This document shows positions 30,755-53,105 of a stretch of 64,000 nt of DNA, piece by piece. Below the pieces are notes generated by a model. It did not search any database, was not told where the DNA came from, and was given only the letters and a program-made list of their open reading frames with translations. A program made the translations under genes and the position numbers. Source of the DNA: Candidatus Zhuqueibacterota bacterium. Its GTDB lineage: Bacteria; Zhuqueibacterota; Zhuqueibacteria; Thermofontimicrobiales; Thermofontimicrobiaceae. The number at the start of each line of letters is the position of its first letter. Position 1 is the stretch's first letter. The DNA is taken from the NCBI GenBank assembly GCA_049322915.1, contig JBMOPW010000007.1, positions 308,246-372,245 on the forward strand, read 5' to 3'.

Positions 30755-31426
30755 TCAGGCAATGTCGCGCACGCTCTTTCGTGAGCGGGATCGTTCTCTG
30801 AAAAACTCGATCACGCCCGGCAGCACGGAGATCAGGATGATCGCCACGATGACCAGGGAAAAATTTCGTTTCACAACCGGCAGGTTGCCGAAGAAATAGC
30901 CCCCAAGCGTGAACAGCAACACCCAGAGCAAGCCGCCAGCGACATTGAAAACAATGAACCTTCCGTAGGACATGGCTCCAACGCCGGCCACGAACGGCGC
31001 AAAAGTACGGATGATGGGGATGAACCGCGCGATGACGATGGTCTTGCCGCCGTGGCGTTCGTAGAATGCGTGGGTTTTTTCCAGGTATTCTTTCTTGAGA
31101 AAGCGAACGCTGCCGCTGAAGGCGCGCGGGCCGATATAGTTGCCGATCCAGTAATTGACCGTGTCGCCCAGAATCGCTGCGATGGATAATAGAATAAGGA
31201 GCTGTTCAACGCCAAGAGACCCCAGCGCGGCAAAGGTGCCGGCTGCAAACAGGAGCGAATCGCCTGGCAGGAACGGCGTGACAACCAGTCCTGTCTCACA
31301 GAAAATGATCACAAATAAAATGAGATAGGTCCACACGCCATAGTTGCTGATGATTTCGTTCAGATGTTTGTCCAGATGCAGAAACAGCTCGAATAATGAT
31401 TTGCCCAGTTCCAACAAGGCGTCCAT
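30755..31426 (-). CDS. dedA: DedA family membrane protein
   Basis: [22 protein letters not shown] and [16 protein letters not shown] motifs. Confidence 0.93.
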
Positions 31427-31622
31427 GTAGCCGGTTCCTTTAAGATAGAGTGAGGATTCAGAGAATTCGCTTTGTCAAACGTTCAACGCGAGCGCGGAGT
31501 TCCAATTGTTTAAAAATTGTGATGAAAAAAACGACCGCGGCGAGCGGGAATTCCCGGGTCCCAATACGTGAACGGCGATGGAGCGGCCGCCCCGTTTAGC
31601 GCCGAAATGACTAAAAAAAATC

Positions 31623-31651
31623 TTGATATTTATCGGTGAGATAAGTATAAT
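31623..31651 (+). promoter_or_regulatory. putative sigma70 promoter for the CDF gene
   Basis: TTGATA-N17-TATAAT. Confidence 0.65.
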
Positions 31652-31731
31652 ACAGCCGCGAAGTAATCGGGCTTTCTGGTGAATTCATCCGAACGATGTG
31701 GCGCAGCGTAACCTCATTCCATTTCATAAAT

Positions 31732-32634
31732 ATGGCTGACGAAAATAAAACCATCAGACTGGGCATTGTGACAGTCATTTTGAATGTTGCATTGATGGCT
31801 GTAAAAATTGCGACCGGCATTCTCGGCAACTCCTACGCCCTCATCGCCGATGGCATTGAATCGGCGACGGATATTTTTACTTCGCTCATCACCTGGGTAG
31901 GATTCCAGCTGTCGCTGCGTCCGCCTGATAGCAAGCATCCCTTCGGTCACGGCAAAATAGAGTCGTTGGCCGGAATTTTTTCAGGACTGGCGCTGTTCTT
32001 TGCCGCAGGAATGATCGGCTATCACAGCATGCGAGAGATTTTAACGCCGCACCACAGTCCGGAATGGTTCACGCTGCCCGTGTTGATTGGCGTTGTCATC
32101 ACAAAAGAGCTGCTATCCCGGCGCATCCAGTCAGTAGCCGGCCAGTTGGACAGTCGCGCCCTTGAGGGAGACGCCTGGCATCATCGCTCCGACGCGCTGA
32201 CGTCCGGCGCTGCCGCAATTGGCATTGCCATTGCGCTGATCGGTGGGCCCGGTCTGTCCATGGCCGATGACTGGGCTGCGCTCCTGGCCTGCACGATTAT
32301 TGTCATAAACGGATCGAGAATCATTTCACGCTCACTGCACGATACCATGGATGGCAGCATCGATCCTGCCTTTGCTGAGTCCATCCGCGCCCAGGCCGTC
32401 AGCATTGAGCGCGTGGCCAGGGCTGAAAAATGTCTGGTTCGGAAGAGCGGAACGAGATATTTCGTGGAGCTGCATATTCAGGTGGATGGTGGACTCTCCG
32501 TGGCCACAGGTCATGAGATCGGTCACCGGGTGAAAGCCCATCTGCTGAAGTATTTTCCCAAATTACAGGACGTCGTTATTCATCTGGAACCCAGCGAGGT
32601 TCACATCGATCCGGGGAGTGACAGCGATGCGTGA
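31732..32634 (+). CDS. cation diffusion facilitator family transporter
   Basis: ADGIESATD, HPFGHGKIE, DAWHHRSDA and C-terminal VIHLEP motifs. Confidence 0.93.
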   Translation: MADENKTIRLGIVTVILNVALMAVKIATGILGNSYALIADGIESATDIFTSLITWVGFQLSLRPPDSKHPFGHGKIESLAGIFSGLALFFAAGMIGYHSMREILTPHHSPEWFTLPVLIGVVITKELLSRRIQSVAGQLDSRALEGDAWHHRSDALTSGAAAIGIAIALIGGPGLSMADDWAALLACTIIVINGSRIISRSLHDTMDGSIDPAFAESIRAQAVSIERVARAEKCLVRKSGTRYFVELHIQVDGGLSVATGHEIGHRVKAHLLKYFPKLQDVVIHLEPSEVHIDPGSDSDA

Positions 32635-32824: not shown

Positions 32825-32930
32825 CTTCTGCAGAAAAAAGAATCGCTGGTGAGGTGGAGAGGGTAGCTTTTATCGGTGGTAGCAGAGCGGATTGAGCCAG
32901 CGAACCAATCACGCAATTTCGGATGAGCGT

Positions 32931-34793
32931 ATGAGCAGCCTGCGTTATAAATTAGGAATGGGGTATTTCATCCTTGTCGGCATTATCATTACTACCAGCG
33001 TTTTCTCGATTTATCATTTCTCGAAATTCGGATCGTTGATTGAAAAAATTCTTCGCAGCAATTATAATGGCATCATCGCTGCAGAGGGGATGGTCATTGC
33101 ACTGGAACGGCAGGAACTGGCCTTGCTATCCGAGTTTGTGGGTAATCAGAAAGAATCAAAAAAGGCATTTGATAAAAACCATTTTCAGTTTCTCTACTGG
33201 TACGAACATGCAATCGAAGGGATGGCCCAACCGCTGGAACCGGTGTTTTTAGACAGCATCAAGATTTCCTATAAACTCTATCTTCAATCCACCGATTCTT
33301 TGTACCATTTCATCCAGATGGAACAGGATTTTTCAAAAGCAAAAGCCTACCAATTCGCTGCGGTCAGGCCCATCGTCACTAAACTCAAGCAGCAATGTAT
33401 TAATTTAATGGAAGTCAATCATAACGCCATAGTGCTGTCCAATGCCGAAGCCAAACGGACGTCGCAGGAGGCGATCATCGCTGTCATCGTTGTCTCGATC
33501 ATTGCCATTTCGACCAGTATCTTCACCTGGTACCAATTGACGCGCATCATTCTCAGGCCGCTGGATAAATTGACCAAGACGATTCGCCGCATCGGCCAGG
33601 GTCATCTTCATCATAAAATTGATATTACGACAGACGATGAAATTGGAGAACTTGGACGCGAATTCAACAAAATGACAGAACGGTTGTACGAATATGATAA
33701 AATTAATCTGGCGCAACTGATCACTGAGAAAAAGAAGACGGAAGCGATTGTCGCCAGTATTCCGGAGCCGATGGTCGTCACCAGCGAAGATAACTCCATT
33801 GTCCTGATGAACAACGAAGCCGCGCATATTTTGCATTTGAAAAACGATGAATGGCCGGGTAAAAAAATCAATGACGTGGTTTTGAATGAGCAATTGAAGC
33901 AACTGCTGACGTTCAATCAGAATCAGATAGATGAAACGGCGATTTCGGAGAACGTTGTTCATGTTCTGGATGGCGAACGAACAAGCTATTATCGGTTATG
34001 CCGGACAAAGATTTTCGACGAGGTGAGCCATGTACAGTGGCTGGTGACCACGCTGCAGGACGTGACCCGTTTCAAACAACTGGATCAGATGAAGACCGAA
34101 TTCATGGCCACGGTCTCCCATGAGTTCAGGACGCCGCTGACGTCCATCAATATGGTGATCGACATTTTGCTGCAGGAGCTTTTGGGCAAGCTCAACCAGC
34201 AGCAGCGCGATTTAATCGCTTCAGCCAAAAACGATTCCGAGCGGCTTTCAAAAATGATGAAAGAATTGTTAGACCTGTCGAAGTTGGAATTGGGCAAATA
34301 TAAAATGAAGATCAGCAGTGTGAACTTCAGAGAGCTCATCGAAACAGCGATCCGTCCGTTGCAGTTGCCGTTTCAGGAAAAGGGGATCGCCCTGGAAATC
34401 TCGGTTGATCCGACACTGCCGGAATTGGCGGTGGATCAGATGCAGATTACATCGGTCATCGTCAATCTTGTGAATAATGCGCTTCGCTACACAGACACCG
34501 GCGGTCGTGTTTCCATCATTGCGTCCCTGGAGGGGGATGACGTGCAAGTGTGCGTGGCCGATAACGGCCGGGGCATTCCCACTGAATCCATAGGCTCCAT
34601 TTTCGATAAATTTGTCCAGGTGAAACAACCCGCGGATTTAACCCCCGGCAGCGTCGGTCTCGGTTTGTCCATCGCCAAAGAACGGGTAAAAATGCACGGC
34701 GGTCAGATCTGGGTCGAGAGCAAAGTGGGTCGGGGCAGCCAATTTTATTTTACGCTTCCCTTGCAACGAAATTCAGAGGATCAATCAGAATGA
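32931..34793 (+). CDS. sensor histidine kinase (periplasmic helical sensor, HAMP, PAS, HisKA, HATPase), KinB-like
   Basis: Two TMs; DEIGELGREFNKM (HAMP); SHEFRTPLT; NLVNNALRY; DNGRGI; GLGLSI. Confidence 0.93.
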   Translation: MSSLRYKLGMGYFILVGIIITTSVFSIYHFSKFGSLIEKILRSNYNGIIAAEGMVIALERQELALLSEFVGNQKESKKAFDKNHFQFLYWYEHAIEGMAQPLEPVFLDSIKISYKLYLQSTDSLYHFIQMEQDFSKAKAYQFAAVRPIVTKLKQQCINLMEVNHNAIVLSNAEAKRTSQEAIIAVIVVSIIAISTSIFTWYQLTRIILRPLDKLTKTIRRIGQGHLHHKIDITTDDEIGELGREFNKMTERLYEYDKINLAQLITEKKKTEAIVASIPEPMVVTSEDNSIVLMNNEAAHILHLKNDEWPGKKINDVVLNEQLKQLLTFNQNQIDETAISENVVHVLDGERTSYYRLCRTKIFDEVSHVQWLVTTLQDVTRFKQLDQMKTEFMATVSHEFRTPLTSINMVIDILLQELLGKLNQQQRDLIASAKNDSERLSKMMKELLDLSKLELGKYKMKISSVNFRELIETAIRPLQLPFQEKGIALEISVDPTLPELAVDQMQITSVIVNLVNNALRYTDTGGRVSIIASLEGDDVQVCVADNGRGIPTESIGSIFDKFVQVKQPADLTPGSVGLGLSIAKERVKMHGGQIWVESKVGRGSQFYFTLPLQRNSEDQSE

Positions 34794-36118: not shown

Positions 36119-36227
36119 TTTTACAATTTTTTCATAATCATGAATTTTGCAATTAATGTCATCTAATTATTCTGAAGAGGTTATAAGTTATTTTTCAACC
36201 GAGCGCAAAACCATCTTGCATTTTGCA
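36114..36227. promoter_or_regulatory. candidate enhancer (UAS) sites for the NtrC-type regulator
   Basis: Three related dyads: TGTAATTTTACA (36114), TGAATTTTGCA (36141) and TGCATTTTGCA (36217). Confidence 0.4.
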
Positions 36228-36300
36228 GTGGCCGATAGTAGATGATTTCGTGACCACCACAATATATAGACAAAACCGGGACAAAATTGCCTAAATTTTG

Positions 36301-36316
36301 TGGCATGACTATTGTA
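36301..36316 (+). promoter_or_regulatory. candidate sigma54 (-24/-12) promoter
   Basis: TGGCATGACTATTGTA versus consensus TGGCAC-N5-TTGCW (GT instead of GC at -12); directly downstream of a sigma54 activator gene. Confidence 0.55.
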
Positions 36317-36374: not shown

Positions 36375-36734
36375 ATGGGACTAAAGATCTTGACCTTAGA
36401 CAATCTTGACATCGCTATTATCGAGCCGCATGGCACGATAACCGGCGGCAACGAGATTGACGAGCTGAAAGTGAAAGCGCGTGATTTGCTCGATCAGGGA
36501 AATAGAAAGCTGATCATCGATCTGGGCAAAATCACGTACATCAACAGTATGGGAATTGGCACTCTGGTCCACATTTACACCTCGTATCAAAATGCCAAAG
36601 GCAAAATTAAACTTTGCAATCTTGGCAAGAGTGTCCAGAACATTTTCGTCATCACCAAGCTTTCAAGTGTCTTTGATGTCTTAGATACTCGCGAAAGCGC
36701 CATTGAGAGTTTTCAAGCAAAGGCTAATAGTTAA
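36375..36734 (+). CDS. STAS domain protein (anti-sigma factor antagonist-like)
   Basis: LIIDLGKITYINSMGIGTL and IFVITKL motifs. Confidence 0.9.
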   Translation: MGLKILTLDNLDIAIIEPHGTITGGNEIDELKVKARDLLDQGNRKLIIDLGKITYINSMGIGTLVHIYTSYQNAKGKIKLCNLGKSVQNIFVITKLSSVFDVLDTRESAIESFQAKANS

Positions 36735-36766
36735 TTAACTTGTTCAAAATTTAGGAGTAACTAACA

Positions 36767-37507
36767 ATGAAACAATCAGTCTTTATCACTGTTCTGCTTG
36801 TTGTAGCAACTGTCATTTCAGTGCTCATCTATATGTATCTGTTACCTGATTTTATTAAAGATGGTGGTCCGCTCGTAGTGGTTTTGATCATTCTCACTAT
36901 CATGGTCGCAACATTCATTTTTGAACGTCTGTTTTCATTGCGTAAAGCGCAAGGCACCGGTTCCCTGGGTGTTTTCTTAAGACAAGTGCAACAGCATATC
37001 AATGATGGCGCCATTGACGAAGCCATCGCTGCCTGCGATAAACAAAGAGGCTCATGCGCCAATATTCTCCGTACCGGACTTGATCGGTATCGCGTTCTGA
37101 AGAGCGAAGGCGATGTAGTCGGTCAGCGTGAAATTCTCGAAAAAGTGCAGCAGTCCATTAACGAATCCATGATGCTGGAAGTACCGCTATTGGAGAAAAA
37201 TCTGGTAGCTTTGTCGACGATTGCTTCCATCGCGACCATGGTCGGTTTGTTAGGTACAACGATCGGAATGATTCGTGCATTTAGAGCTCTAGCCCATTCC
37301 GGCGCCCCGGATGCCGTTCAATTGTCAATTGGTATTTCTGAAGCCCTTATCAATACCGCTGGTGGCCTCATTGCCGCTATCGCCGGTATCGTTGCATATA
37401 ACTTCTTCACTACAAAAGTTGATAACTTCACCTACATGATTGATGAGGCGAGCTATTCCATCGTTCAGTCTCTCACAGTGAATCCGGTTAAGACACGTAA
37501 TCGATAG
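36767..37507 (+). CDS. exbB: MotA/TolQ/ExbB proton channel family protein
   Basis: LSTIASIATMVGLLGTTIGMIRAF and GISEALINTAGG motifs. Confidence 0.92.
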   Translation: MKQSVFITVLLVVATVISVLIYMYLLPDFIKDGGPLVVVLIILTIMVATFIFERLFSLRKAQGTGSLGVFLRQVQQHINDGAIDEAIAACDKQRGSCANILRTGLDRYRVLKSEGDVVGQREILEKVQQSINESMMLEVPLLEKNLVALSTIASIATMVGLLGTTIGMIRAFRALAHSGAPDAVQLSIGISEALINTAGGLIAAIAGIVAYNFFTTKVDNFTYMIDEASYSIVQSLTVNPVKTRNR

Positions 37508-37520
37508 ATAGAGGTTCAAT

Positions 37521-37985
37521 ATGGCAAAACCGAAAATGAGGCGGGTTTCGATCCGCATTGATATGACCCCAATGGTGGACGTTGCGTTCTTATTGTTGAC
37601 ATTCTTCATGTTGACGACGCAATTTCGCCCACCGGAAGAAGTGGTTATTGAACTTCCTTCGTCACATTCGGCCTTCAAAGTGCCGGATTCGGATGTGCTG
37701 ATTCTCACGGTGGACAAGGACGGCAACATCTTTGTCGGACTGGATTCCCAGGTTCTCCGCGCCCGCGTGTTTGGCGAAGAGAATAAATACCGCATGGGAA
37801 TTCAGGTGGATAAAAATGATCTGGGCAATATCCTGATCCAGGCGCGTATGGCCAATCCGAAATTACGCACGATCGTCAAAGGGGATAAAAATGCACCTTA
37901 CGGCCCCATTGAAGATGTGATGACGATCTTGCAAAAAGTAAAAATTACTCGTTTCAATTTAGTGACCGATCTTGAAAGGACATAA
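37521..37985 (+). CDS. exbD: ExbD/TolR family protein (copy 1)
   Basis: IDMTPMVDVAFLLLTFFMLTT with the conserved TM Asp; KGDKNAPY. Confidence 0.92.
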   Translation: MAKPKMRRVSIRIDMTPMVDVAFLLLTFFMLTTQFRPPEEVVIELPSSHSAFKVPDSDVLILTVDKDGNIFVGLDSQVLRARVFGEENKYRMGIQVDKNDLGNILIQARMANPKLRTIVKGDKNAPYGPIEDVMTILQKVKITRFNLVTDLERT

Positions 37986-37997
37986 AGGAGAATTAGC

Positions 37998-38507
37998 ATG
38001 GGCGGTCTTAATGCAGGTGACGAATCAAAGAGTCGCTCTAAAAAGACTAGCAAGAAGTTTAAAAAGAAGCCTCGCGTAGGCCTTCGTATCGATATGACGC
38101 CGATGGTGGACGTTGCATTTCTGCTGTTGACTTTCTTCATGTTGACAACGCATTTCGCAAAACGCCAGACCATGGAAATCAACCTTCCTCCGGATGAAAA
38201 GACAACCGTCGAAGTGGCTGAATCGAATTTACTCACATTGCTGGTTGGAAGCGATTTTTCAATTTATTGGAACATGGGCTCCGAAGCGCCACAGAAAATA
38301 GAGTTCAAATCTCTGCGCCCCTTGCTATTGGAGCGATCTCAGAGCAATCCCAAACTCATCACGCTGGTAAAAGTGGATCGGGAAGGAACCTATTCAATGA
38401 TGGTGGATATAATGGATGAACTGAATCTGGCCAACATCACACGATTCAGTTTAGCGCCTATGTTACCAAAAGATAAGGAAACGTTGGCCAAAATTGCTGG
38501 TACCTAA
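37998..38507 (+). CDS. exbD: ExbD/TolR family protein (copy 2)
   Basis: IDMTPMVDVAFLLLTFFMLTT and Y.MMVDIMDEL motifs. Confidence 0.92.
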   Translation: MGGLNAGDESKSRSKKTSKKFKKKPRVGLRIDMTPMVDVAFLLLTFFMLTTHFAKRQTMEINLPPDEKTTVEVAESNLLTLLVGSDFSIYWNMGSEAPQKIEFKSLRPLLLERSQSNPKLITLVKVDREGTYSMMVDIMDELNLANITRFSLAPMLPKDKETLAKIAGT

Positions 38508-38528
38508 AATACAGAAGGAGAAATAGCA

Positions 38529-39263
38529 ATGGCGGAATATGTGATACCTTCGCCCTTTCAGTATGGCGCCCCAGAGCTTAAGAAAAATTATAAAAAGTAT
38601 TATACGCGTGCACTTGCGATTGCCGTTATTTTGCACATCATTGGAGTTGGCACTTATTGGGGTTCAGTGTACCTGGCAAGAGAAGAGGAACCACAATATC
38701 AGGTTCGCATTATGAAGTATAGTGAACTCGGCCCCCCACCGTCCATCACAGACACACAGGCTGCGCCGGCGATTGCCGTGGCAACCGGTGGCGTGAGACC
38801 GTCGGTGGGTATACCAGTCCCGGTTCCTGATGCTGAAATCAATCCCGAACAGACAATTGCGACACAAGCGGAGATGAGCTCCATCACTGCGCCTCTGCTG
38901 ACGGAGGGCACTGGAGAAGGCGGTGGGGCAACAATGATCGAGCAGGACATCAAAGATATCGTGATTGATGAAGCGCCACCCGATTTTGTGCCCTATGAAA
39001 AAGCACCCATGGTTGTGAAACGCGTCGTCCCGGTCTACCCCGATTTAGCCCGACAGGCTGGATTGGAAGGAACGGTGTGGCTTAAGCTATGGATCGATAA
39101 AGAGGGTAAGGTTAAAAAAGCTGTCATCGTAAAATCCGATGCAGAAATCCTCAATCAGGCAGCAATTGATGCAGCGACACAATGGTTATTTACCCCAGCC
39201 TTGCAGCAGGATAAACCGGTTGCAGTATGGATGGCGGTTCCATTCAAATTCAGTTTAAAATAG
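38529..39263 (+). CDS. tonB: energy transducer TonB
   Basis: YGAPELKKNY N-terminus; single TM with His; Pro-rich linker; YPDLARQAGLEGTV...W.FTPA C-terminal domain. Confidence 0.9.
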   Translation: MAEYVIPSPFQYGAPELKKNYKKYYTRALAIAVILHIIGVGTYWGSVYLAREEEPQYQVRIMKYSELGPPPSITDTQAAPAIAVATGGVRPSVGIPVPVPDAEINPEQTIATQAEMSSITAPLLTEGTGEGGGATMIEQDIKDIVIDEAPPDFVPYEKAPMVVKRVVPVYPDLARQAGLEGTVWLKLWIDKEGKVKKAVIVKSDAEILNQAAIDAATQWLFTPALQQDKPVAVWMAVPFKFSLK

Positions 39264-39266
39264 GTT

Positions 39267-39479
39267 ATGAAAAATCTGTCGCTCTCTATGTTGTTGGCAT
39301 ACGGAGTTTCTATCATCGTTGGGGGGAGCGGCATAGCCATTCTTGTAGGCTTTGCCGTCCCACCCTATGTGCCTAAAAAGATACGATTGACATTTGGAAT
39401 TGTGTTGCTTTTATTGGGAATTTACCGATTTGCCATCAGCCGAATAAAAGCAACTCAAACTCGAGGAGATGGAAAGTGA
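39267..39479 (+). CDS. small 2-TM membrane protein
   Basis: 70 aa; two hydrophobic segments, the second ending in GIYRF; tightly packed between tonB and the next gene. Confidence 0.7.
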   Translation: MKNLSLSMLLAYGVSIIVGGSGIAILVGFAVPPYVPKKIRLTFGIVLLLLGIYRFAISRIKATQTRGDGK

Positions 39480-40390
39480 AGAAGATTTCATTTCTCATCT
39501 TTTTTATTTTTTTTATAGCAGCTTTCATTGCGTGTCAGTCACCGAAAAAAGAGACGCCGACACGCGGCTCATTAGAGATACTGACTTCAGAATCCCATGC
39601 CTCTCTCATGATGAAGGAAGCAGAGGAATTCCAGCGATTATACACAAGCGCAGCGATCACTATTACAGCAACATCGACGCGGGATGCAATTGTCCAGTTG
39701 CTCAATGATAGTGTGGCAACGATTTGCGTCGACCGGCCGCTCAATCCGGAAGAGCAGGCCGTTGTCCAAAAAGCGAACATGAAGCTGTCCACAACAAAAA
39801 TTGCCAAAGATGCCCTGGCAATTTTTGTGAACAAGCAAAATCCAATTCGCCAAATCTCTATTCAAAGTCTTTCAGATATTATCACCGGCCGCGTGCTGGA
39901 CTGGCAACAGGTGCCTGAGTCCCAATGGTCGAATGGTAAAATTCGATTAGCGCTCACGGGTCGCAATTCTGGCTTGTACGAACTTTTGATCCCTCATTTT
40001 TTGAAGCTTTCCACAGAGCCAGCCATCAGCTTTTTAGCTGAAAATCAGAACCAGGTACTCGACTTTGTCATTTCCCATCCCAATGCAATCGGTGTCGCTT
40101 CGGTCCCGGTCGTTCATGACACAACCCGATTCAATAATTCAATCCGGTTGCTCAATGTCGAAGCGACAGATTCCACCAATACGATCACGTATGTGAGATT
40201 GCATCAGGCCAATATCTATCGCGAAACATACCCGTTGAATTACCCAATTTATATGTACTCGACCACCGCTTATGGGAGCCTCGCATCAGGCTTTACGTCG
40301 TTTGTGGCAAGCGCCTCCGGTCAAAAAATTATTCTCAATGCCGGCCTTGTGCCAGCGACTATGCCAGTCAGGTTAGTTCAATTAAAATAG
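39476..40390 (+). CDS. PstS-like (PBP type 2) substrate-binding lipoprotein
   Basis: Lipobox FIAC; IAKDALAIFVNKQNP, W.QV, YPL.YPIY.Y and GQKIIL.AGLVP motifs. Confidence 0.85.
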   Translation: MKKISFLIFFIFFIAAFIACQSPKKETPTRGSLEILTSESHASLMMKEAEEFQRLYTSAAITITATSTRDAIVQLLNDSVATICVDRPLNPEEQAVVQKANMKLSTTKIAKDALAIFVNKQNPIRQISIQSLSDIITGRVLDWQQVPESQWSNGKIRLALTGRNSGLYELLIPHFLKLSTEPAISFLAENQNQVLDFVISHPNAIGVASVPVVHDTTRFNNSIRLLNVEATDSTNTITYVRLHQANIYRETYPLNYPIYMYSTTAYGSLASGFTSFVASASGQKIILNAGLVPATMPVRLVQLK

Positions 40391-40403
40391 GAGATTTCAT
40401 CGC

Positions 40404-42107
40404 ATGAAACTGAAACGAATATTTTTATCATTCATTATTTTTTCTCTGATGATTCCCATGCTCGCTCACGGCCAGACAGCGAAAGGAAAAGAACTTCTCC
40501 AACAGGGCAAGATCGATGAAGCGCTCCAAGAGCTACATAAGGTGATTGTGAAATATCCGAAGAGCGAGGAAGCATGGCTATTGTTGGGCGAAACGTATTT
40601 GAAGGCGGGAAAGACAGATTCCGCATTGATCGCCGGAGAGCGCGTCGTAAAGCTCAATAAAAAGAATGTCCAGGCTTATATATTTCTATCCGATGTAAAT
40701 CTGGCTACAAATAACTACGCCAGCGCATCCAAAGTCCTCGAGACAGGATTGGTGCCTAACAAAAATAATTCAACGCTGTTGACTAAACTTGGCTATACGT
40801 ATTTGGCCGCTGATTCTGCGGATGAGGCGCTGGTCGCATTCTCTAAAGCCAAAGAATATGAACCTGATAATTCGGCGATTCATAATGGCATTGGTGACGC
40901 CTATATGAAGCAGGGCTTCACCGCCATGGCCATTATTTCTTTTGAGAAAGCCCTGGAACTCGATTCAACGAATGCGCCCATTCGGTACAAAATAGCCAAA
41001 GCGTACACCAAAGACCGGCGATACGATAAAGCCGCTCAAACCTATCTGAAGATCGTCCAACTCGATACGACCAATATGGAAGCGCTATTGGAATTGGGGC
41101 AACTCTTTTATTCAGCAAAACAGTATACCAACGCGGCCAGATTCCTGCACCGGTACATCCAACGGGAAGATGAAAGCCAGGAAGTGTTGGAGCATTACAT
41201 GGAATCTGCGTACCTAGGTCGGTTTTATGAGGACGCGCTGAATGCAGCCGAGGCATACTTCAAAATATCTCCGCAGTCGTTGCGTGCGAAGCAGATTATC
41301 GGCCACTCACAATATGAACTCAAGCAATACCAAAATGTCATTAAAACTTACAATGAACTGAGCGCGCAGGATACTCTTGAATTCGAAGAGATACGCCGTT
41401 TGGGAAAAGCATATTTGTACTCAAGCCAGGATTCGCTGGCTGAAAAAACATTGCTTCAGGTGATTGAAAAAGATCCGACGCAGACTGAAATATACGGTGA
41501 TCTGGGCGCAATTTACATGCGCTTGAAAAAATGGGACAAGGCTGCGGCAATGTTCGAGCAGAAGTTTGAGAGAGACTCCACGTCTGTCGCTTCCTACCTC
41601 AATTATGCGTTGTCGAATATGGTGCTTGAGCGCTGGGAGCTGTCCCGAAAGGCGCTCCGCACCGCGTTGAAATTAAAGACAGACTATTTACCAGCTCACA
41701 TGTACCTCGGTAGTGTGCTCATGCAAACAGATTCGCTGGATGCAGCAAAGGAAGAATATAAAAAAGTAATCACCCTGGCTGATACTGCGGTGAGCAAGTA
41801 TAAGAATGAACTTGCTGATGCTCACAAGGGCACAGGAATGGTGTGGCTGCTCAAAGCGGCTCGCATGAACAAAATGATCACCGACGATGATATTGCCGAG
41901 CGTAACCGCAGATTGAATCAGGCATTGGAGTCGTTCAACGTTTCGCTGCGCTTCAAAAATAGTGATGTGGCAACGCATCTTTCTAAGGCACAAACACTTG
42001 CGCTTTTGAATAAGCGCGAAGAAGCCATTGCTGAATACAAAGTTGTGCTCCGGCTCGATCCAAAAAATAAAACCGCACAGGAAGATTTGAAAAAGTTGAC
42101 CCAGTAG
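40404..42107 (+). CDS. exported tetratricopeptide repeat protein
   Basis: Signal peptide (AHG-Q); TPR-like helical repeats over the whole length. Confidence 0.9.
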   Translation: MKLKRIFLSFIIFSLMIPMLAHGQTAKGKELLQQGKIDEALQELHKVIVKYPKSEEAWLLLGETYLKAGKTDSALIAGERVVKLNKKNVQAYIFLSDVNLATNNYASASKVLETGLVPNKNNSTLLTKLGYTYLAADSADEALVAFSKAKEYEPDNSAIHNGIGDAYMKQGFTAMAIISFEKALELDSTNAPIRYKIAKAYTKDRRYDKAAQTYLKIVQLDTTNMEALLELGQLFYSAKQYTNAARFLHRYIQREDESQEVLEHYMESAYLGRFYEDALNAAEAYFKISPQSLRAKQIIGHSQYELKQYQNVIKTYNELSAQDTLEFEEIRRLGKAYLYSSQDSLAEKTLLQVIEKDPTQTEIYGDLGAIYMRLKKWDKAAAMFEQKFERDSTSVASYLNYALSNMVLERWELSRKALRTALKLKTDYLPAHMYLGSVLMQTDSLDAAKEEYKKVITLADTAVSKYKNELADAHKGTGMVWLLKAARMNKMITDDDIAERNRRLNQALESFNVSLRFKNSDVATHLSKAQTLALLNKREEAIAEYKVVLRLDPKNKTAQEDLKKLTQ

Positions 42108-42147
42108 TTGCAGCAGGTTGTTATTTAATCCATTAGGAGGAATCAGT

Positions 42148-43149
42148 ATGAAAATGAGGCAATTATCGTTTATATTTATCGTTGTCGCCCTGTTCTGGGG
42201 ATGCCAAAAATCCCAGCAGGTATCGCTTATTACAGGATGGGAAAAATATAAAGATCCTTACTTCAAAGTCCAATTTGCCCAACCGGTGAATTGGTTTGTC
42301 AATGCCGAAGGTTCGCGCATTCGGCTTTACTCCAGTCCTCAGTCGGTCGATAAATTCATGACACCAACTGCAAAAGGCGTGGAAGGCGTTCAGTTCATCA
42401 TTTCATTTCAACAGATGGAACAGCTCAAAACGTTGGATGAGTATTCCGCAGAGTATCAGAGCGAGTTATCCGCTTCTGGCCTGATGTTGAAAACTGAAAA
42501 GAAATCAGTTGATAATATCGACGCCGCGCTGTTCGAATACACCGAAGTGTACGGTAAAAACGCCAAAGTAACAACCATCGAGACAGTGGCTATTAAAGAT
42601 ACCGTGCTTTACATCATTGGGTACAAAGCGTTCAACGAATTGGCGACTATGTACCGGCCGGCCCTCGACACGCTATTGGCTTCGATTAAGCTGCCCCAGT
42701 CAAAGGAAAAGCCTTTAGATCCTTCGCTGCCATCGGCAGAGTTTACTTCCTTTTCAAATAATTTCTTGAAAATCTCCCACCCGGACAATTTCTCGTCCGC
42801 CGTTATACCATTGAAAGGCGAGACTAAATTTTCTTTGGAACTCAAAGGCTATCGTCAGGATAGCAACATCAGAATCGATATCCTGCCGGCCAAAGGATTA
42901 ACCGTGGAGAAAGTGGTTGAACAGAATATCGCCAAATTCCCCAGAGCTGTGGGCCCCAATGAAACGACAATCAGCGGCCAGAAAGCGCTGTCACTCAACT
43001 ATTCGCCAGCAAAAGAAATTTCCAGCCGCGTCTATTTCACAGTGAAAAACGACCAGGTCTATCGAATCATCATGAACTACTATCAGCCCATGAAAGAAAG
43101 CTTTTTACCGGCATTCGAAAAGACAGTTTCATCCTTGCAAATTCTGTAA
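42148..43149 (+). CDS. lipoprotein with two PsbP/Mog1-like domains
   Basis: Lipobox FWGC; repeated unit YKDPYFKVQFAQPVNW...LDTLLASIKL and FSNNFLKISHPDNF...FEKTVSSLQI; AGGAGG RBS. Confidence 0.75.
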   Translation: MKMRQLSFIFIVVALFWGCQKSQQVSLITGWEKYKDPYFKVQFAQPVNWFVNAEGSRIRLYSSPQSVDKFMTPTAKGVEGVQFIISFQQMEQLKTLDEYSAEYQSELSASGLMLKTEKKSVDNIDAALFEYTEVYGKNAKVTTIETVAIKDTVLYIIGYKAFNELATMYRPALDTLLASIKLPQSKEKPLDPSLPSAEFTSFSNNFLKISHPDNFSSAVIPLKGETKFSLELKGYRQDSNIRIDILPAKGLTVEKVVEQNIAKFPRAVGPNETTISGQKALSLNYSPAKEISSRVYFTVKNDQVYRIIMNYYQPMKESFLPAFEKTVSSLQIL

Positions 43150-43608: not shown

Positions 43609-44016
43609 GTGGAATTCGATTTTGGAATCATTTTTTTGTTTGTAATTCTGGGTATGGGATTTATTCTGGCGGCCTTGCTTGTCGGGAGGTTCGTTCGACC
43701 CGGTCGTCTGCGCAAGGAGCGAGACGCTACGTATGAATGCGGAGAAGCGCCCATCGGGGAAAGCTGGTATAATTTCAATCCGCGGTTCTACATGTTAGCC
43801 ATTCTCTTTCTCATCTTCGATGTAGAATTGGCGGTGACCTACCCGGTGATTGCTGTGCTGCGCAACTGGGGCGAACGCGGCCTGGGGCTGATCGCATTTC
43901 TTGAAATTTTGCTTTTCGTCGTCATCATCGTTACCGGTCTTGTATTTTTATGGGTTCGGGGCGATCTGGAATGGATAAAAAAGATTGAATTGTTAGGACA
44001 AGAGGAAAAGATATGA
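43609..44016 (+). CDS. nuoA: NADH-quinone oxidoreductase subunit A
   Basis: YECGE and FLIFDVE motifs. Confidence 0.95.
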
Positions 44017-44522
44017 TGAATGAATACGCCTGGGGCGAAGGACTGGCCATACCCACCAAACTGGATTGGCTCATTAACTGGCCTCGAAAGAATTCGCTGT
44101 GGTACCTGCTATTTGCGACTGCCTGCTGCGGAGTGGAACTTATGCAAACCGGCGGCCCTCGCACAGATTTAGATCGCTTTGGAATGGTGTTCCGGGCCTC
44201 GCCGCGACAGGCAGATATTTTGCTGGTCGCCGGAACAATTACTTATAAAATGGCTGATGCGGTGCGGCGTCTTTATGACCAGATGCCGGAACCAAAATAT
44301 GTACTGGCCATGGGCTCGTGCGCCAATTGCGGTGGATTGTTTCAATTGAGCTATTCAGTCGTGAAGGGCGTTGATAAAATTGTCCCGGTGGATATTTATC
44401 TGGCCGGTTGTCCGCCCCGTCCCGAAGCATTGAATGAAGCGCTGATCAGTATTCAAAAGAGAATGGAAAAGGATCACTGGGCGCAGCGCATGAATATAGA
44501 TTCGGAGGCATTGGCTCTATGA
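44013..44522 (+). CDS. nuoB: NADH-quinone oxidoreductase subunit B
   Basis: ACCGVE, SPRQAD, MGSCA and GCPPRPE motifs. Confidence 0.96.
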
Positions 44523-45061
44523 CTCTCACAGAGGTTCTTCATTCTCTACAAAAACACCTTCCTGATATTACATTGGACCAGCAACAAAGTGAAAAGGGCG
44601 ATTCCTGGATTGTAGCGCCGGCCGAGGAAATTCTTCGTGTGCTGTCCTGCCTGAAAAATGATCTGGGCATCTCCTACTTAGCCTGTCTTTCGGGCGTGGA
44701 TAATGAAAGCGCATTCGGCGTTGTCTATCATCTTCGCTCGCTGAAGGATAAAATTGATGTCACCATCAAGGCGGCGTTGCCAAAGGAAAATCCCGGCATA
44801 GCATCGGTCAGCGGCCTTTTCGCGGTTGCTCAATGGTTCGAGCGGGAAACATTTGATATGCTTGGCATTCAATTTCAAGGTCATCCTGATTTGAGACGCA
44901 TCTTGTTACCAGAAGACTGGGTCGGCTATCCTTTGCGCAAAGATTATCAACCGCCAACCGAATATAATGGCATTCCGGCGGACCGGCCTGATGCGCATGC
45001 ACTGTTTGATAAATTTTATCCGAAACCCAAACCAGCAGATGACCCGTCTCAGGCATCTTAA
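44519..45061 (+). CDS. nuoC: NADH-quinone oxidoreductase subunit C
   Basis: [24 protein letters not shown] and YPLRKDY motifs. Confidence 0.95.
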
Positions 45062-45103
45062 CGAATTTGAAAAAAGTACGGTAGAAATTTAAGGACGGTT
45101 TAC

Positions 45104-46237
45104 ATGACCAAATTGGCTGTAGAGACTCTGGATAACGGATCAACTATCATTAATATGGGACCCCAACATCCTTCCACGCATGGGGTCATCAATTTCAGAT
45201 TAAAACTCACCGGCGAAATAATCGAGACCATCGATCCCAACGTCGGATTCCTGCATCGCGGACTGGAAAAGATCGCGGAAATGGTTCCGTACACCGGCTA
45301 TATTCCCTACACCGATCGTATCGATTACGTTTCAGCGATGTTCTGCAATCAGGGCTGGTGCATGGCAGTCGAGAAACTGCTGGGACTTGAGGTGCCGCGT
45401 CGGGCGGAATACCTGCGCGCCATCGCCTGCGAATTGAACCGCATCATCAACCATCTGCTTGCGTGCGGAAGCCTTGCCATGGACTGCGGCGCAGTCACTC
45501 CTTTTCTGCACTGCATCCGCGAGCGCGAGCATGTGAACGACCTGATGGAAAAAATCTGCGGCGCCCGACTGACTTATAATTACATGCGCTTCGGCGGTGT
45601 GTCGTGCGATTATGCGCCGGGACTTGATAAAGAGATTCTCACCTTTATCGACCGGTTTGAAAGGTTCCTGCCGGAATTAAATCGCCTGATCACTGACAAT
45701 GAGATCTTTGTGAATCGATTGATACACCTGGGCGTCATCGATGCGGATTCTGCGATAAGTTACAGTCTTGGCGGACCGAATCTGCGCGCGTCCGGGGTGG
45801 ATTTTGACCTGCGCCGCGATTATTCCTACAGCGCCTATCCTGAATTGAAATTCAAAGTGGTCACAGGCAATGGCTATCGGGGTGAAGTTGGCGATTCGTT
45901 CGCCCGGTACATGGTGCGCATCGACGAGATGAGCGAATCGGCAAAGATTGTACGGCAGGCAATCGAGGGTCTGCCCGAAGGAGAAATTCAAGCGAAAGTG
46001 TCGCGAAATCCGTCCATCGCTCCCGGGGAGATTTATAGCGTCGTCGAAAGCAATCGAGGCGAGCTCGGCTATTACGTGGTGAGCAATGGCACAGATCGGG
46101 CCTTCCGCGCCAGAATCCGAACCGGCTCATACACGGCCATGTCGCTGCTCCAGAAATTTGTGCCGGGACTGATGGTCGCAGATCTCGTGGCGTTCTTTGG
46201 CAGCCTGGATGTCGTAGCGCCGGAAGTCGACCGCTAA
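45104..46237 (+). CDS. nuoD: NADH-quinone oxidoreductase subunit D
   Basis: NMGPQHPSTHG, LHRGLEK, DRIDY and C-terminal EVDR; no NiFe CxxC motifs. Confidence 0.95.
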   Translation: MTKLAVETLDNGSTIINMGPQHPSTHGVINFRLKLTGEIIETIDPNVGFLHRGLEKIAEMVPYTGYIPYTDRIDYVSAMFCNQGWCMAVEKLLGLEVPRRAEYLRAIACELNRIINHLLACGSLAMDCGAVTPFLHCIREREHVNDLMEKICGARLTYNYMRFGGVSCDYAPGLDKEILTFIDRFERFLPELNRLITDNEIFVNRLIHLGVIDADSAISYSLGGPNLRASGVDFDLRRDYSYSAYPELKFKVVTGNGYRGEVGDSFARYMVRIDEMSESAKIVRQAIEGLPEGEIQAKVSRNPSIAPGEIYSVVESNRGELGYYVVSNGTDRAFRARIRTGSYTAMSLLQKFVPGLMVADLVAFFGSLDVVAPEVDR

Positions 46238-46382
46238 ATCGACTGGCGCCAATGTATCGCGGCTGATTTATTGGCATGCTGGGAATTGTCTCATCGGCAG
46301 GTAGATTCTTCAATTGAACGATCCTTGTACATGAATTACAGATCGCGTCTTTTTCATATAACCATAGAATGAACGAAGCCTT

Positions 46383-47615
46383 ATGAAAGAACTTTTTCTC
46401 TCTCTGTCAGAAAGCTGGAAACTCAACCCTGCTCAAATGACGCTGGTGACGGTGCTGTGGCTACTGGTTGTGAGCATTCTTGTGCTGGTATTCATGGCCC
46501 TATTCGCCGGCATTACTTCCTGGGCGGAGCGCCGCATCGCCGGACGCATGATGTCCCGAATCGGACCCAATCGCGTTGGGCCGGTGGGATTTCTTCAATG
46601 GCTCGCCGATGGTCTGAAATCTTTCCTCAAAGAAGATGTCATACCCGCGGCCTCGGATCGGCTGATGTTCCGCTTTGCGCCGTACGTTGTTTTCACCGGC
46701 GCATTCGGAGCGTTCGCAGCGCTGCCATTTGGGTACGGCATCGCTGCAACGCATATCGATATCGGCATTGTCTATGTCACAGCGATTGCGACGCTGACGG
46801 TGCTGGGAATTATGATGGCCGGCTGGTCGAGCAACAACAAATGGTCGCTCATCGGCGGCATTCGCAGCGCGGCTCAGATTGTCTCCTACGAAATTCCCTC
46901 GGGGTTGGCAGTGATGTCAATCGTTGTTATTGCCGGCTCGTTGAACATGGAAGAGATTATCAAACAGCAGGGGGGATGGCCCTGGCATTGGTTCATCTTC
47001 CACAATCCGTTTACATTTATTGCTTTCTTCATCTTCTTCGCATCGATTCTGGCTGAAGGAAACCGCACGCCGTTCGATCTGCCCGAGGCAGAGAGCGAAC
47101 TGGTTGCCGGTTATCTCACCGAATATTCCGGAATGCGCTTTGTATTTTTCTTCTTTGCCGAATGGGCGAATCTCTGGGTCATGTCCGCGTTGGTCACCAC
47201 GCTATTTTTAGGCGGCTGGCAGATTCCCGGCATCTCTGACCTGGGCGCCATGCTCGCCACGGCGACATTCCCGATCAAAGCGTTATGGGTGCTGTTGAGC
47301 CTGGTTGTGTTCTGCACCAAAACGTTGATCCTGGTCTTTGTCGTCATCTGGATTCGATGGACTTTGCCCCGCTTGCGCGTTGACCAACTGATGGTCATGT
47401 GCTGGAAATATTTTACACCCATCGGTTTTGTGGCGCTGCTCGGATCGGCATTGTTCAGCATTATGCCGCACTCCGGCGCCTGGTTGTATTTCCACTGGGC
47501 TGTAAAAATCGGGTTGACTGCCCTGGGTTTTACCATTGTACTCATGTTGCTCCTGCGATCCGCATACAATCTTCGTAAATCAAAAGATGAGATTGATTTG
47601 AAAATCTGGATCTGA
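46383..47615 (+). CDS. nuoH: NADH-quinone oxidoreductase subunit H
   Basis: ERRIAG..M.RIGPNRVGP and NRTPFDLPEAESELVAG motifs. Confidence 0.96.
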   Translation: MKELFLSLSESWKLNPAQMTLVTVLWLLVVSILVLVFMALFAGITSWAERRIAGRMMSRIGPNRVGPVGFLQWLADGLKSFLKEDVIPAASDRLMFRFAPYVVFTGAFGAFAALPFGYGIAATHIDIGIVYVTAIATLTVLGIMMAGWSSNNKWSLIGGIRSAAQIVSYEIPSGLAVMSIVVIAGSLNMEEIIKQQGGWPWHWFIFHNPFTFIAFFIFFASILAEGNRTPFDLPEAESELVAGYLTEYSGMRFVFFFFAEWANLWVMSALVTTLFLGGWQIPGISDLGAMLATATFPIKALWVLLSLVVFCTKTLILVFVVIWIRWTLPRLRVDQLMVMCWKYFTPIGFVALLGSALFSIMPHSGAWLYFHWAVKIGLTALGFTIVLMLLLRSAYNLRKSKDEIDLKIWI

Positions 47616-47718
47616 CAATGCGCGAATCCAGCGAGTGCCCGATCGATGCGCTGTACATGTTTAGCTGTGTTCATTTAAGTATTGAATAAAAACAATTCCA
47701 CGTAACTTATCAGGAGTC

Positions 47719-48306
47719 ATGCCTGTGCCGCACGCTGTGGTGAATTATTTTTCGAGTATCAGAAAAACCTTTGTCTCTATATTTGAAGGAATGGCGGTGA
47801 CTTTATCGTATATGGTTCGAAAACCAATGACGATTCAGTACCCGGATCGCATTCCCAAACCTTTACCGGAGACGTTGCCATCTAATTTTCGTGGCGTTCT
47901 TGAAGTGGATATCAGTACTTGTACCGGCTGTTTAGCCTGCATGAAACGATGCCCAATTGACGTGATTCTCATTGTAACAGAACGAGACCCGGAGACGAAA
48001 AAAAACTTTCTGACCCGATTCGAGATTGATGCGAGTAAATGTATGGTCTGTGGGTTATGCACCGAAGTCTGTCCCACAGGCGCCATCCGTCACAGCACCG
48101 AATTCGAAGCGAGTTCCTGGAATATTATGAATCTGGTCTTGTTGTATGTTCAGCCAGGTGAAAAAGTACCGGTCTATAAAATGGTCAAAGATCAACCCGC
48201 TCAGGGATTGCCGCAGAACAAGCCGTTTCAGCATATTCGCAAGGCCTGGGATAGTCCCGCGCCAATCAAGCTGGACTCCGCCCGCGGCAAAGTTCGCTGG
48301 AAGTAA
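47719..48306 (+). CDS. nuoI: NADH-quinone oxidoreductase subunit I
   Basis: Two CxxCxxCxxxCP motifs; TIQYP. Confidence 0.93.
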   Translation: MPVPHAVVNYFSSIRKTFVSIFEGMAVTLSYMVRKPMTIQYPDRIPKPLPETLPSNFRGVLEVDISTCTGCLACMKRCPIDVILIVTERDPETKKNFLTRFEIDASKCMVCGLCTEVCPTGAIRHSTEFEASSWNIMNLVLLYVQPGEKVPVYKMVKDQPAQGLPQNKPFQHIRKAWDSPAPIKLDSARGKVRWK

Positions 48307-48411
48307 TGAGTGCGGGTCGTTTTGCGAACCGTGTGCCGGACGTGGGGTAATCAACCGGATCGACAAATCAATATTTGCTGAATAATTTATTGAATCGCAG
48401 GAGGTTTCTGA

Positions 48412-48960
48412 ATGACTCAGATCGCGAGTCAGGCGCTTTCGTATGCGGACGTCTTATTTTATATTTTAACCGGCTTCATTTTGATGTGCGCGCTGGTAGT
48501 CGTCTTCTCTAAAAACATCATTCATTCGGCATTTTCGCTGTTGGGGGTCTTCGCCGGAGTGGCCGGTCTGTACGGTTTAATTGTCGCTAATTTTATCATG
48601 GCTGTCCAGTTGCTGGTGTATGTCGGCGGCGTGCTGGTCATTATTTTGTTCGCCATCATGTTGACGCGAGGCATCAAGGACGTCCGTCAATCCAATCCTT
48701 CGACCGGACTGTTAACCGCCAGCATTATTGGCGTCATCGTGGCGGTTTTGCTCGTCGCTGTCGCCGTCACTTTCCCCTGGAAAATTCAAGCGATGACCGA
48801 CGCCACGTCCACAGTCCCACGGATTGGAAATGCACTGCTGGATCAATATCTGATCCCATTCGAAGTGCTGTCCGTGCTGCTGTTGGCCGCTTTGATCGGC
48901 GCTGTGATGTTAGTCCGCAAAGAAATTAAATCTGAAAACTTAACAGAGGAACAGGAATGA
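48412..48960 (+). CDS. nuoJ: NADH-quinone oxidoreductase subunit J
   Basis: QLLVYVGGVLV and PFEVLSVLLLAALIGA motifs. Confidence 0.95.
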   Translation: MTQIASQALSYADVLFYILTGFILMCALVVVFSKNIIHSAFSLLGVFAGVAGLYGLIVANFIMAVQLLVYVGGVLVIILFAIMLTRGIKDVRQSNPSTGLLTASIIGVIVAVLLVAVAVTFPWKIQAMTDATSTVPRIGNALLDQYLIPFEVLSVLLLAALIGAVMLVRKEIKSENLTEEQE

Positions 48961-49271
48961 ATTTGACCCTTAGCTTGCAGCATTATCTTGTCGTGGCGGC
49001 ATTATTGTTCTCGTTAGGGATTGTCTGCGTCCTCTCCCGGCGCAATGCTATTGGTTTGTTGATGGGGGTGGAACTCATTCTTAACTCCGCCAATATCAAT
49101 CTGATCGCTTTCGCCAATTACATCGAAAATGGCATTTCCGGCCAGGTGTTCGCCCTGTTTGTGATTGTGCTGGCTGCGGCGGAAGCGGCCATTGCCATGG
49201 CAATCGTATTGGCTATTTATCGATCTTTTAAAAATATCGATGTCGCACTGACGGTTAACTTGAAGGAGTAA
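48957..49271 (+). CDS. nuoK: NADH-quinone oxidoreductase subunit K
   Basis: GVELILNSANINL and AAAEAA motifs. Confidence 0.95.
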   Translation: MNLTLSLQHYLVVAALLFSLGIVCVLSRRNAIGLLMGVELILNSANINLIAFANYIENGISGQVFALFVIVLAAAEAAIAMAIVLAIYRSFKNIDVALTVNLKE

Positions 49272-49275
49272 ACTT

Positions 49276-51405: not shown

Positions 51406-51576
51406 CGCTCCACATTGAATCCGAAGCATGAGTGAGTTTCAGGAAGGATTCATAAAATAGTCCGGACGGAGCGTGTATGTAAGATGTGACTTCGCGAAGT
51501 GAAATTAAAACGATAATTGAAAAGCAAACCAGAAATCTATAAACGATCATTTCCGTTGTAAATTGGAGCATTTTCT

Positions 51577-53097: not shown

Positions 53098-53105
53098 GGT
53101 GAACA

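Follow-up and report, generated by a model that had tools for sequence, protein, structure and literature searches.

We analyzed a stretch of 64,000 nucleotides (nt) from a Candidatus Zhuqueibacterota bacterium (contig JBMOPW010000007.1, positions 308,246 to 372,245; hereafter the window), which carries at 36375-43149 a run of nine open reading frames (ORFs), all on the + strand and either 3-40 nt apart or overlapping by 4 nt, encoding a Ton motor and its companions (Table 1). The Pfam matches in this cassette are STAS (PF01740), MotA_ExbB (PF01618), ExbD (PF02472, twice), TonB_C (PF03544), PBP_like_2 (PF12849) and TPR families, and neither the ORF of 70 amino acids (aa) nor the last ORF, which more likely starts at the ATG at 42148 and then encodes 333 aa, a protein recorded in databases with exactly this sequence, has a Pfam or NCBIfam match. 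An earlier reading made from the DNA letters (the sequence-only reading) had placed nine co-oriented ORFs at these coordinates, and our ORF check confirmed them. It overlooked a sensor kinase and a sigma-54 activator upstream, together with a promoter and twin enhancers, and the unit reaches further upstream than it had proposed, through the enhancer and promoter sites (36137-36316) to the regulator and kinase genes.

Table 1. Features of the Ton cassette, its predicted control region and one further gene of the window.
Feature	Position	Strand	Basis
Sensor histidine kinase	32892..34793	+	Pfam HAMP-PAS-HisKA-HATPase; two predicted transmembrane segments flank a periplasmic domain
Sigma-54 enhancer-binding response regulator, REC-AAA-Fis helix-turn-helix	34790..36118	+	Pfam
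Degenerate upstream copy of the predicted enhancer	36137..36151	+	Repeats the next site in the same direction 76 nt earlier, at 87% identity
Predicted enhancer TTGCA-N3-TGCA(A)	36213..36227	+	Motif contrast between loci groups
Predicted sigma-54 -24/-12 promoter TGGCAY-N5-TTG	36301..36316	+	Motif contrast between loci groups
Cytoplasmic STAS protein (anti-sigma antagonist superfamily)	36375..36734	+	PF01740, TIGR00377 over cut-off
ExbB, distinct FCB subfamily	36767..37507	+	PF01618; 329+ bits for the subfamily vs <=174 for other ExbBs
ExbD1 with transmembrane Asp motif	37521..37985	+	PF02472; motif in 120/129 homologs
ExbD2 with transmembrane Asp motif	37998..38507	+	PF02472; motif in 124/133 homologs
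TonB: transmembrane anchor with His36, Pro-rich linker, C-terminal domain with YP motif	38529..39263	+	PF03544, TIGR01352
70-aa two-transmembrane protein, unnamed conserved family (trio part 1)	39267..39479	+	No Pfam/NCBIfam match
PstS-fold lipoprotein, degenerate phosphate site (trio part 2)	39476..40390	+	PF12849; Cys20 invariant
567-aa exported all-TPR protein (trio part 3)	40404..42107	+	TPR families throughout; signal peptide read from sequence
Tandem PsbP/Mog1-fold lipoprotein	42148..43149	+	Two domains; lipoprotein Cys19 invariant
Putative ABC membrane protein	25863-27545	-	PF16949; not PstA/PstC

The four motor genes carry the hallmarks of a Ton system, namely the channel threonines of ExbB, the transmembrane (TM) Asp of the ExbD proteins, and a TonB anchor, linker and C-terminal domain. 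T164 and T197 of ExbB are invariant across 31 aligned rows, and we take the conserved ExbB and ExbD residues to be equivalent to those of E. coli. TonB scores 73.5 bits with PF03544 and 57.7 bits with TIGR01352 (cut-off 27.1), all five of its PDB matches are TonB proteins, and its YP motif is well kept (Y170 in 53 and P171 in 59 of 60 rows). The motor proteins do not reach the cut-offs of the E. coli-type NCBIfam equivalogs. Judged by these residues and domains, the motor looks intact. A tandem pair of tonB genes is often found in the cassette (loci L022, L030, L032, L045, L047, L059, L065, L088 and L117 of the surveys described below), and an extra tonB stands upstream of STAS in L031, L203, L207 and L208.

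Behind tonB lie three genes that we call the trio, encoding a two-TM (2-TM) protein, a PstS-fold lipoprotein of the periplasmic binding protein (PBP) type, and a TPR protein. The 2-TM gene precedes the PBP gene or is fused to it in 129 of 131 PBP-TPR pairs; natural fusions to the lipoprotein are seen in 6 of 144 distant representatives and in three genomes from one family of the KSB1 phylum. The hidden Markov model of the 2-TM protein was built from ORFs defined by position, which makes its counts partly circular, and a search for longer relatives, a weak one that missed the known fusions, gave one match among 7997 scored candidates. In Atlas, the 2-TM protein matched only unnamed Bacteroidota clusters. 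Of the 84 rows in the close set, 82 have the TPR gene after the PBP gene, and the two exceptions are one split gene.

The PstS-fold lipoprotein was modeled with high confidence (predicted local distance difference test score, pLDDT, 95.3) as a type II periplasmic binding fold, its top structure matches are phosphate-binding proteins, and the comparison with PstS gives a Foldseek E-value of about 1e-22 at 23-25% identity. Its TIGR02136 score is 120 bits, below the cut-off of 206.6. The motifs GSDT, GGGSG, S-R and R-x-x-SGT make up the phosphate site of PstS. When compared with a reference of 11 pst-linked rows, two of which are misassigned permeases, the 127 rows of the family have lost GSDT, GGGSG and the Arg before SGT: V/A/T-D/S-E-S replaces GSDT, the glycine loop is absent, and the Arg is changed to D, T or P. 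R87, S165-G166, Q244 and a C-terminal tail, GLVPAxxPxR, are kept. In a FastTree tree, the PstS proteins (9 pst-linked rows plus one) form their own long branch with support of 100, and neither pstA nor pstC is found near the PBP-TPR pairs (0 of 131 loci), whereas true PstS loci of lower score do have them. Phosphate import by this lipoprotein was rejected because of the lost motifs and the lack of linked pstC, pstA or pstB. Within the PstS-fold family, a sister branch (12 rows; L134, L137, L149, L168-L173, L177) precedes genes for a membrane diguanylate cyclase and an FtsX/MacB-type permease, often as a tandem pair, and a paralogous PBP branch with no TPR or motor gene nearby occurs in motor-carrying genomes (L130, L135, L138, L147, L151).

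To describe the conservation of the cassette, we used two sets of loci, whose counts are descriptive and not statistics because kin are not independent. The close set came from a genome-representative scan in which at least 579 of 598 pattern stretches were confirmed PBP relatives; we retrieved the best 80, supplemented them with 4 loci from relatives and removed one duplicate, and 54 loci had enough sequence. For the broader set, 201 genomes of the Bacteroidota phylum were searched and 147 matched, true PstS included; 80 regions from 150 listed matches were taken (60 of high and 20 of low score), from which 2 duplicates were removed. In the close set, all 54 loci have ExbB and TonB, 39 have STAS, 30 have PsbP and at least 26 have the regulator. 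In the broader set, TPR follows PBP in 49 of 85 PBP rows, the remaining rows being true PstS beside pstCAB, the diguanylate-cyclase-linked branch, or paralogs, and among the 48 loci with room for assessment, ExbB is adjacent in 32, TonB in 37, STAS in 11, the kinase or regulator in 11 and PsbP in 7. Across the 131 PBP-TPR pairs, the motor lies upstream in 91 and downstream in 14, and a receptor is found at two, on the opposite strand. Genomes of KSB1, Ignavibacteria and Bacteroidota share the gene order of the cassette. Where PBP or TPR is gone, the 2-TM gene remains after tonB (L158, L189, L194), and where PBP is gone, the TPR gene remains before STAS-exbB (L199, L200). The four-gene motor is therefore the core, usually accompanied by the trio as a tightly linked module. 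Second motor copies in relatives (L199, L200, L012, L206) are arranged as TPR-STAS-exbB-exbD-exbD-tonB without PBP or as tonB-PBP-TPR-STAS-exbB-exbD-exbD.

These surveys bear out two statements of the sequence-only reading, that the accessory genes co-occur with the motor, a linkage that survives the change of gene order, and that a core of exbB-exbD-exbD-tonB-PstS-like-TPR exists in Bacteroidota. PsbP and STAS are lineage add-ons, not core. The N-S-x-G motif of the STAS protein is present in 50 of 76 homologs, the other 26 not being matched by the pattern. For the PsbP-fold lipoprotein, 39 of 51 aligned homologs match PF18933, and its AlphaFold model (pLDDT 89.9) finds PsbP proteins as its best Foldseek matches.

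The operon lies under a predicted sigma-54 switch, of which the promoter, the enhancers, the activator and RpoN are all recognizable in the genome. Orthologs of the kinase (38-59% identity; its TM layout was read from the sequence) stand upstream of the cassette in about 31 close loci, and those of the response regulator (57-72% identity) at the same position. Among 49 regulator-linked loci, 35 have the promoter pattern TGGCAY-N5-TTG before STAS or exbB, versus 6 of 80 others, and 29 have TTGCA-N3-TGCAA-type sites, again versus 6 of 80; shuffling predicts fewer than 0.25 per group for either motif and fewer than 0.2 for the promoter. Both patterns were derived from these same loci, and the evidence is thus the contrast between the groups. 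The combination of enhancer and promoter occurs once in the whole genome, and in 9 of 21 genomes scanned it occurs once each, eight times at the cassette and once before an integrase-like ORF; no further targets, and hence no wider regulon, were found by this pattern in the 21 genomes. Scans for sigma-70 promoters (17 versus 12.6) and terminators (11 versus 8.9) were near chance, the kinase and regulator passed the cut-off of no listed NCBIfam equivalog, and the sensor domain had no PDB match. In L027, a decayed copy with a split PBP gene and no tonB or TPR gene called, the promoter, enhancers and PsbP gene are kept.

The genome (6.25 Mb, 96% complete, with nearest named homologs in KSB1) encodes 9 MotA/ExbB, 7 TonB_C and 45 plug matches, 42 of the last over the cut-off in ORFs of 623-1023 aa. 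All plug matches, the six OmpA/Pal-like matches and the single weak TolB_N match lie outside the window, in line with the sequence-only reading, which had noted no TonB-dependent receptor, TolB or Pal there. Its term 'receptor-less' is right for the window and wrong for the genome, where 42 TonB-dependent receptors are encoded elsewhere. Two plain exbB-exbD-tonB sets, several other motor loci and a separate pstSCAB operon also lie elsewhere, and the operon is here an extra motor, likely an inducible one. Two further loci with one ExbB and two ExbD proteins (C4:34495-42548 and C32:160650-171906) carry large exported proteins and a long TonB-like or AgmX-like gene, and look, as we take it, closer to Agl/Glt than the window cassette does. 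At C7:292211-302453, just left of the window, and at C32:84786-93057, an enlarged ExbB (525 and 477 aa) is accompanied by two ExbD-like genes and a membrane-anchored gene of 380-400 aa, with large exported proteins upstream. Among 80 other genomes of the KSB1 phylum, 14, from three families, have the cassette PBP, and the distribution of the cassette ExbB agrees with this except that one genome of the order carries a fragment at a contig end. A genome of the same genus shares lepA and lacks both the cassette and the complex I block that follows it. Although the block is missing there, horizontal gain is not shown, the guanine-plus-cytosine fraction being 0.457 for the cassette versus 0.488 for the genome.

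What does a motor without a linked receptor drive? TonB-dependent receptors need an ExbBD motor. We scanned 21 genomes chosen as carriers of the cassette motor, and in six of them the only MotA/ExbB match is of the cassette type, with 17-24 plug matches each, and the other 15 have 2-5 MotA/ExbB matches (counts from assemblies, in which genes may be missed). Because the receptors need ExbBD, the cassette ExbB must serve them in these single-motor genomes, unless the assemblies have gaps. Five of the six have the kinase, regulator, STAS and trio at the locus. Among the single-motor genomes tested for TonB_C, one has a single other match (431 aa, with a long unrelated N-terminus) and four have 4-11 matches. 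A second line of evidence is comparative. The TonB2 system of Riemerella anatipestifer (exbB2-exbD21-exbD22-tonB2) has the gene for leucyl-tRNA synthetase (LeuRS) upstream and a phosphate-binding protein downstream, and deletion of tonB2 strongly cuts hemin use and low-iron growth (PMC4446302; this and the papers below are cited from the available portions of their text). Our locus L161 reads LeuRS-exbB-exbD-exbD-tonB-2TM-PBP-TPR, the same layout, and together with the uptake defect this implies that the motor most likely energizes unlinked receptors. We therefore think it probable that the motor powers receptors encoded elsewhere and that the trio forms a periplasmic helper module, which supports the coupling and does not replace the receptor. 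In such a machine, protons would drive the ExbB pentamer around the ExbD1/ExbD2 pair, TonB would pull on the TonB boxes of receptors, the 2-TM protein would keep the lipoprotein at the inner membrane beside the motor, and the TPR protein might be a scaffold, analogous to the requirement for TtpD2 in Vibrio TonB2. In this genome, it would be an extra inducible motor beside the two plain exbB-exbD-tonB sets, turned on by the adjacent kinase and sigma-54 activator.

Several observations weigh against this interpretation. Other Ton motors are present in this genome, and the cassette PBP was not found in any of 13 further genomes from the family, so the cassette may be specialized here. In 16 of the 48 broader loci, exbB no longer adjoins the trio; in favor of the interpretation, cassette-type ExbB is still present in all 16 genomes, the 13 motor loci fetched all read exbB-exbD-exbD-tonB, and in seven cases the motor lies downstream on the same contig at a distance of about 19-21 kb, filled with complex I genes in all four of those that were fetched. 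In five other genomes, which keep the four motor genes, a search run without a positive control gave no full-length TPR match, and one of the five has a single ExbB and 20 receptors; since the motor occurs there without a full-length TPR match, the trio is not universally required. Orthology to the Riemerella system was judged by layout and size, not by sequence. The four Riemerella TonB2-system genes cloned alone energized no tested receptor in E. coli, where the TonB1 set worked (PMC4446302), which fits a missing helper but could have other causes. Finally, Bacteroides thetaiotaomicron relies on TonB4 and TonB6, not TonB5, for the glycans tested (PMC10350073), the orthology of TonB5 to the cassette being based on layout and size only.

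The sequence-only reading had TonB working on the TPR, PBP and PsbP proteins rather than on receptors, and this is not supported, given the sole cassette ExbB in 6 of 21 genomes with 17-24 receptors, the Riemerella uptake phenotype, the standard TonB domain and the missing Tol parts. A related scheme, in which the cassette TonB mainly pulls on a complex of TPR and PstS-fold proteins for an envelope job (Tol-like upkeep or lipoprotein handling) and other TonBs borrow ExbBD, has in its favor that TonB remains with the trio in 5 of the 16 detached loci (37 versus 32 of 48), that a receptor is found at only 2 of 131 loci and that no Pal passes the cut-off in this genome, and it could draw on the further TonB_C proteins of most single-motor genomes (2-11 matches) and on the use of TonB4/6 for B. 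thetaiotaomicron glycans (PMC10350073). We nevertheless hold it to be improbable, because the tonB2 deletion in Riemerella impairs uptake (PMC4446302), the cassette TonB domain is the standard one, and one single-motor genome has no other plain TonB; nor is the cassette a general substitute for Tol-Pal in the family, since 13 related genomes do without it.

The trio could instead be a sensing module with no mechanical role, its PstS-fold protein binding a periplasmic ligand other than phosphate and signaling via the 2-TM protein, the kinase or STAS so as to adjust the motor, as might be expected from the linkage of kinase, activator and STAS in many loci, the lack of a permease near any of the 131 loci, and the position of the sister branch directly before membrane diguanylate cyclases (12 rows). 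The trio persists, however, when the kinase/regulator and STAS are each linked in just 11 of 48 broader loci, and the residues at the PstS ligand-site positions vary widely in the family, unlike a conserved pocket; we give this explanation little credence. Least plausible, to the point of being very improbable, is that the trio works in the envelope independently of the motor and that inherited gene order or co-expression is all that holds the two together in an old operon: the detachment in 16 of 48 loci and the presence of complex I genes, another large membrane neighbor, after the trio in 12 of 48 Bacteroidota loci would suit it, but trio and motor stay linked whichever comes first (91 and 14 of 131), and single members of the trio stay with the motor, the 2-TM gene behind tonB (L158, L189, L194) and TPR before STAS-exbB (L199, L200).

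With unlinked receptors still our preferred target of the motor, a bolder version of the machine is conceivable, though we consider it doubtful. It would be a seven-part FCB Ton motor consisting of an ExbB pentamer, an ExbD1/ExbD2 heterodimer, TonB, and a dedicated coupling module of the 2-TM, pseudo-PstS and TPR proteins that would dock on TonB and be needed for engaging, gating or redirecting it. Its sigma-54 two-component system would, in KSB1 and Ignavibacteria, control this complete machine and nothing else, and STAS would serve as a clutch in the cytoplasm. If true, such a machine accounts for the failure of the four Riemerella motor genes alone in E. coli. Bacteroidota and related bacteria rely on dozens of TonB-dependent receptors, which are served by a few motors. 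The four motor genes are already known, and their trio neighbors are routinely mislabeled, one as a phosphate ABC (ATP-binding cassette) protein, and one is usually unnamed; in the open literature searched, neither a module made of the trio nor sigma-54 control was found described. If the trio proteins are true motor subunits, they are new parts of the Ton system and a reason for the published failed complementation; if they are dispensable, the locus is an ordinary Ton operon. The sigma-54 switch offers a way to learn under which conditions the extra motor runs.

The sequence-only reading had reported no ABC permease in the window; a putative ABC membrane protein (PF16949) is in fact present, which is neither PstA nor PstC and seems unrelated. 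This gene and an ATPase gene (25863-28300) adjoin lepA, and the ATPase is also found beside lepA in the same-genus genome without the cassette. DedA-like and cation-efflux-like genes, recognized from sequence, lie upstream of the kinase (30755-32634), and a similar cation-efflux gene stands upstream of a second cassette (L206). A complex I-like operon, nuoA-D and H-N, begins 460 nt after the cassette (43609-54593), with no nuoE, F or G between D and H; nuoA was identified by Pfam and the other nuo genes were recognized from sequence. In L178-L181, the trio and exbB-exbD-exbD-tonB flank an entire nuo operon, all on one strand, so that the motor cassette encloses a proton pump.

Comparison with known systems places the cassette among Ton motors. 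With PstS of PstSCAB, the trio lipoprotein shares the fold, the lipoprotein nature and 23-25% identity, and it is unlike PstS in having no pstA/pstC nearby, no phosphate motifs, a branch of its own and a family-specific C-terminal tail. The Myxococcus AglRQS/Glt machinery, like the cassette, combines an ExbB/TolQ-type motor with two ExbD/TolR-type genes and a TPR protein, and the window differs from it in a plain TonB domain and the lack of FHA or AgmX-type parts. An Agl/Glt assignment was rejected: the AgmX/PglI model scored 23.4 bits (<40) and GltE 56 (<225), and no such genes were seen in the mapped loci. Tol-Pal shares the same three kinds of component (context in PMC12204202, in part), and the window has neither TolB nor Pal at the locus; this assignment was also rejected, with none of the six Pal matches in the genome over the cut-off and the single weak TolB_N match on another contig. 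Receptor-less Ton operons are common: in B. thetaiotaomicron, according to the portion available, most tonB genes stand alone, and the TonB5 locus (BT2665-BT2668) has exbB, two exbD and tonB in one run with no linked receptors (PMC10350073). The two-exbD TonB system of Flavobacterium psychrophilum likewise has exbB, two exbD and tonB unlinked to receptors, and a part in iron uptake is described for its exbD2 mutant (PMC4229322), whereas B. fragilis imports via TonB3, in a different, TatD-linked locus (PMC11467351). In Vibrio vulnificus, TtpB2, TtpC2 and the TPR protein TtpD2 of the TonB2 system are all required for receptor-dependent iron uptake (PMC6957404); this is likewise a Ton motor with co-encoded accessories, one of them a TPR protein, the likeness of TtpD2 to the window TPR protein being an analogy only, and it differs in having one ExbD, other accessories and, in the portion available, no PstS-fold or PsbP protein. 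Riemerella TonB2 has, as here, one exbB, two exbD and tonB followed by a gene annotated as a phosphate ABC substrate-binding protein, with no linked receptor mentioned in the part of the paper used, which does not treat the downstream genes as parts of the system (PMC4446302). Unlike it, the window adds STAS, the tandem-PsbP lipoprotein and the sigma-54 two-component system and has shorter motor proteins, whereas L161 matches it in the LeuRS-motor-PBP layout and in similar sizes.

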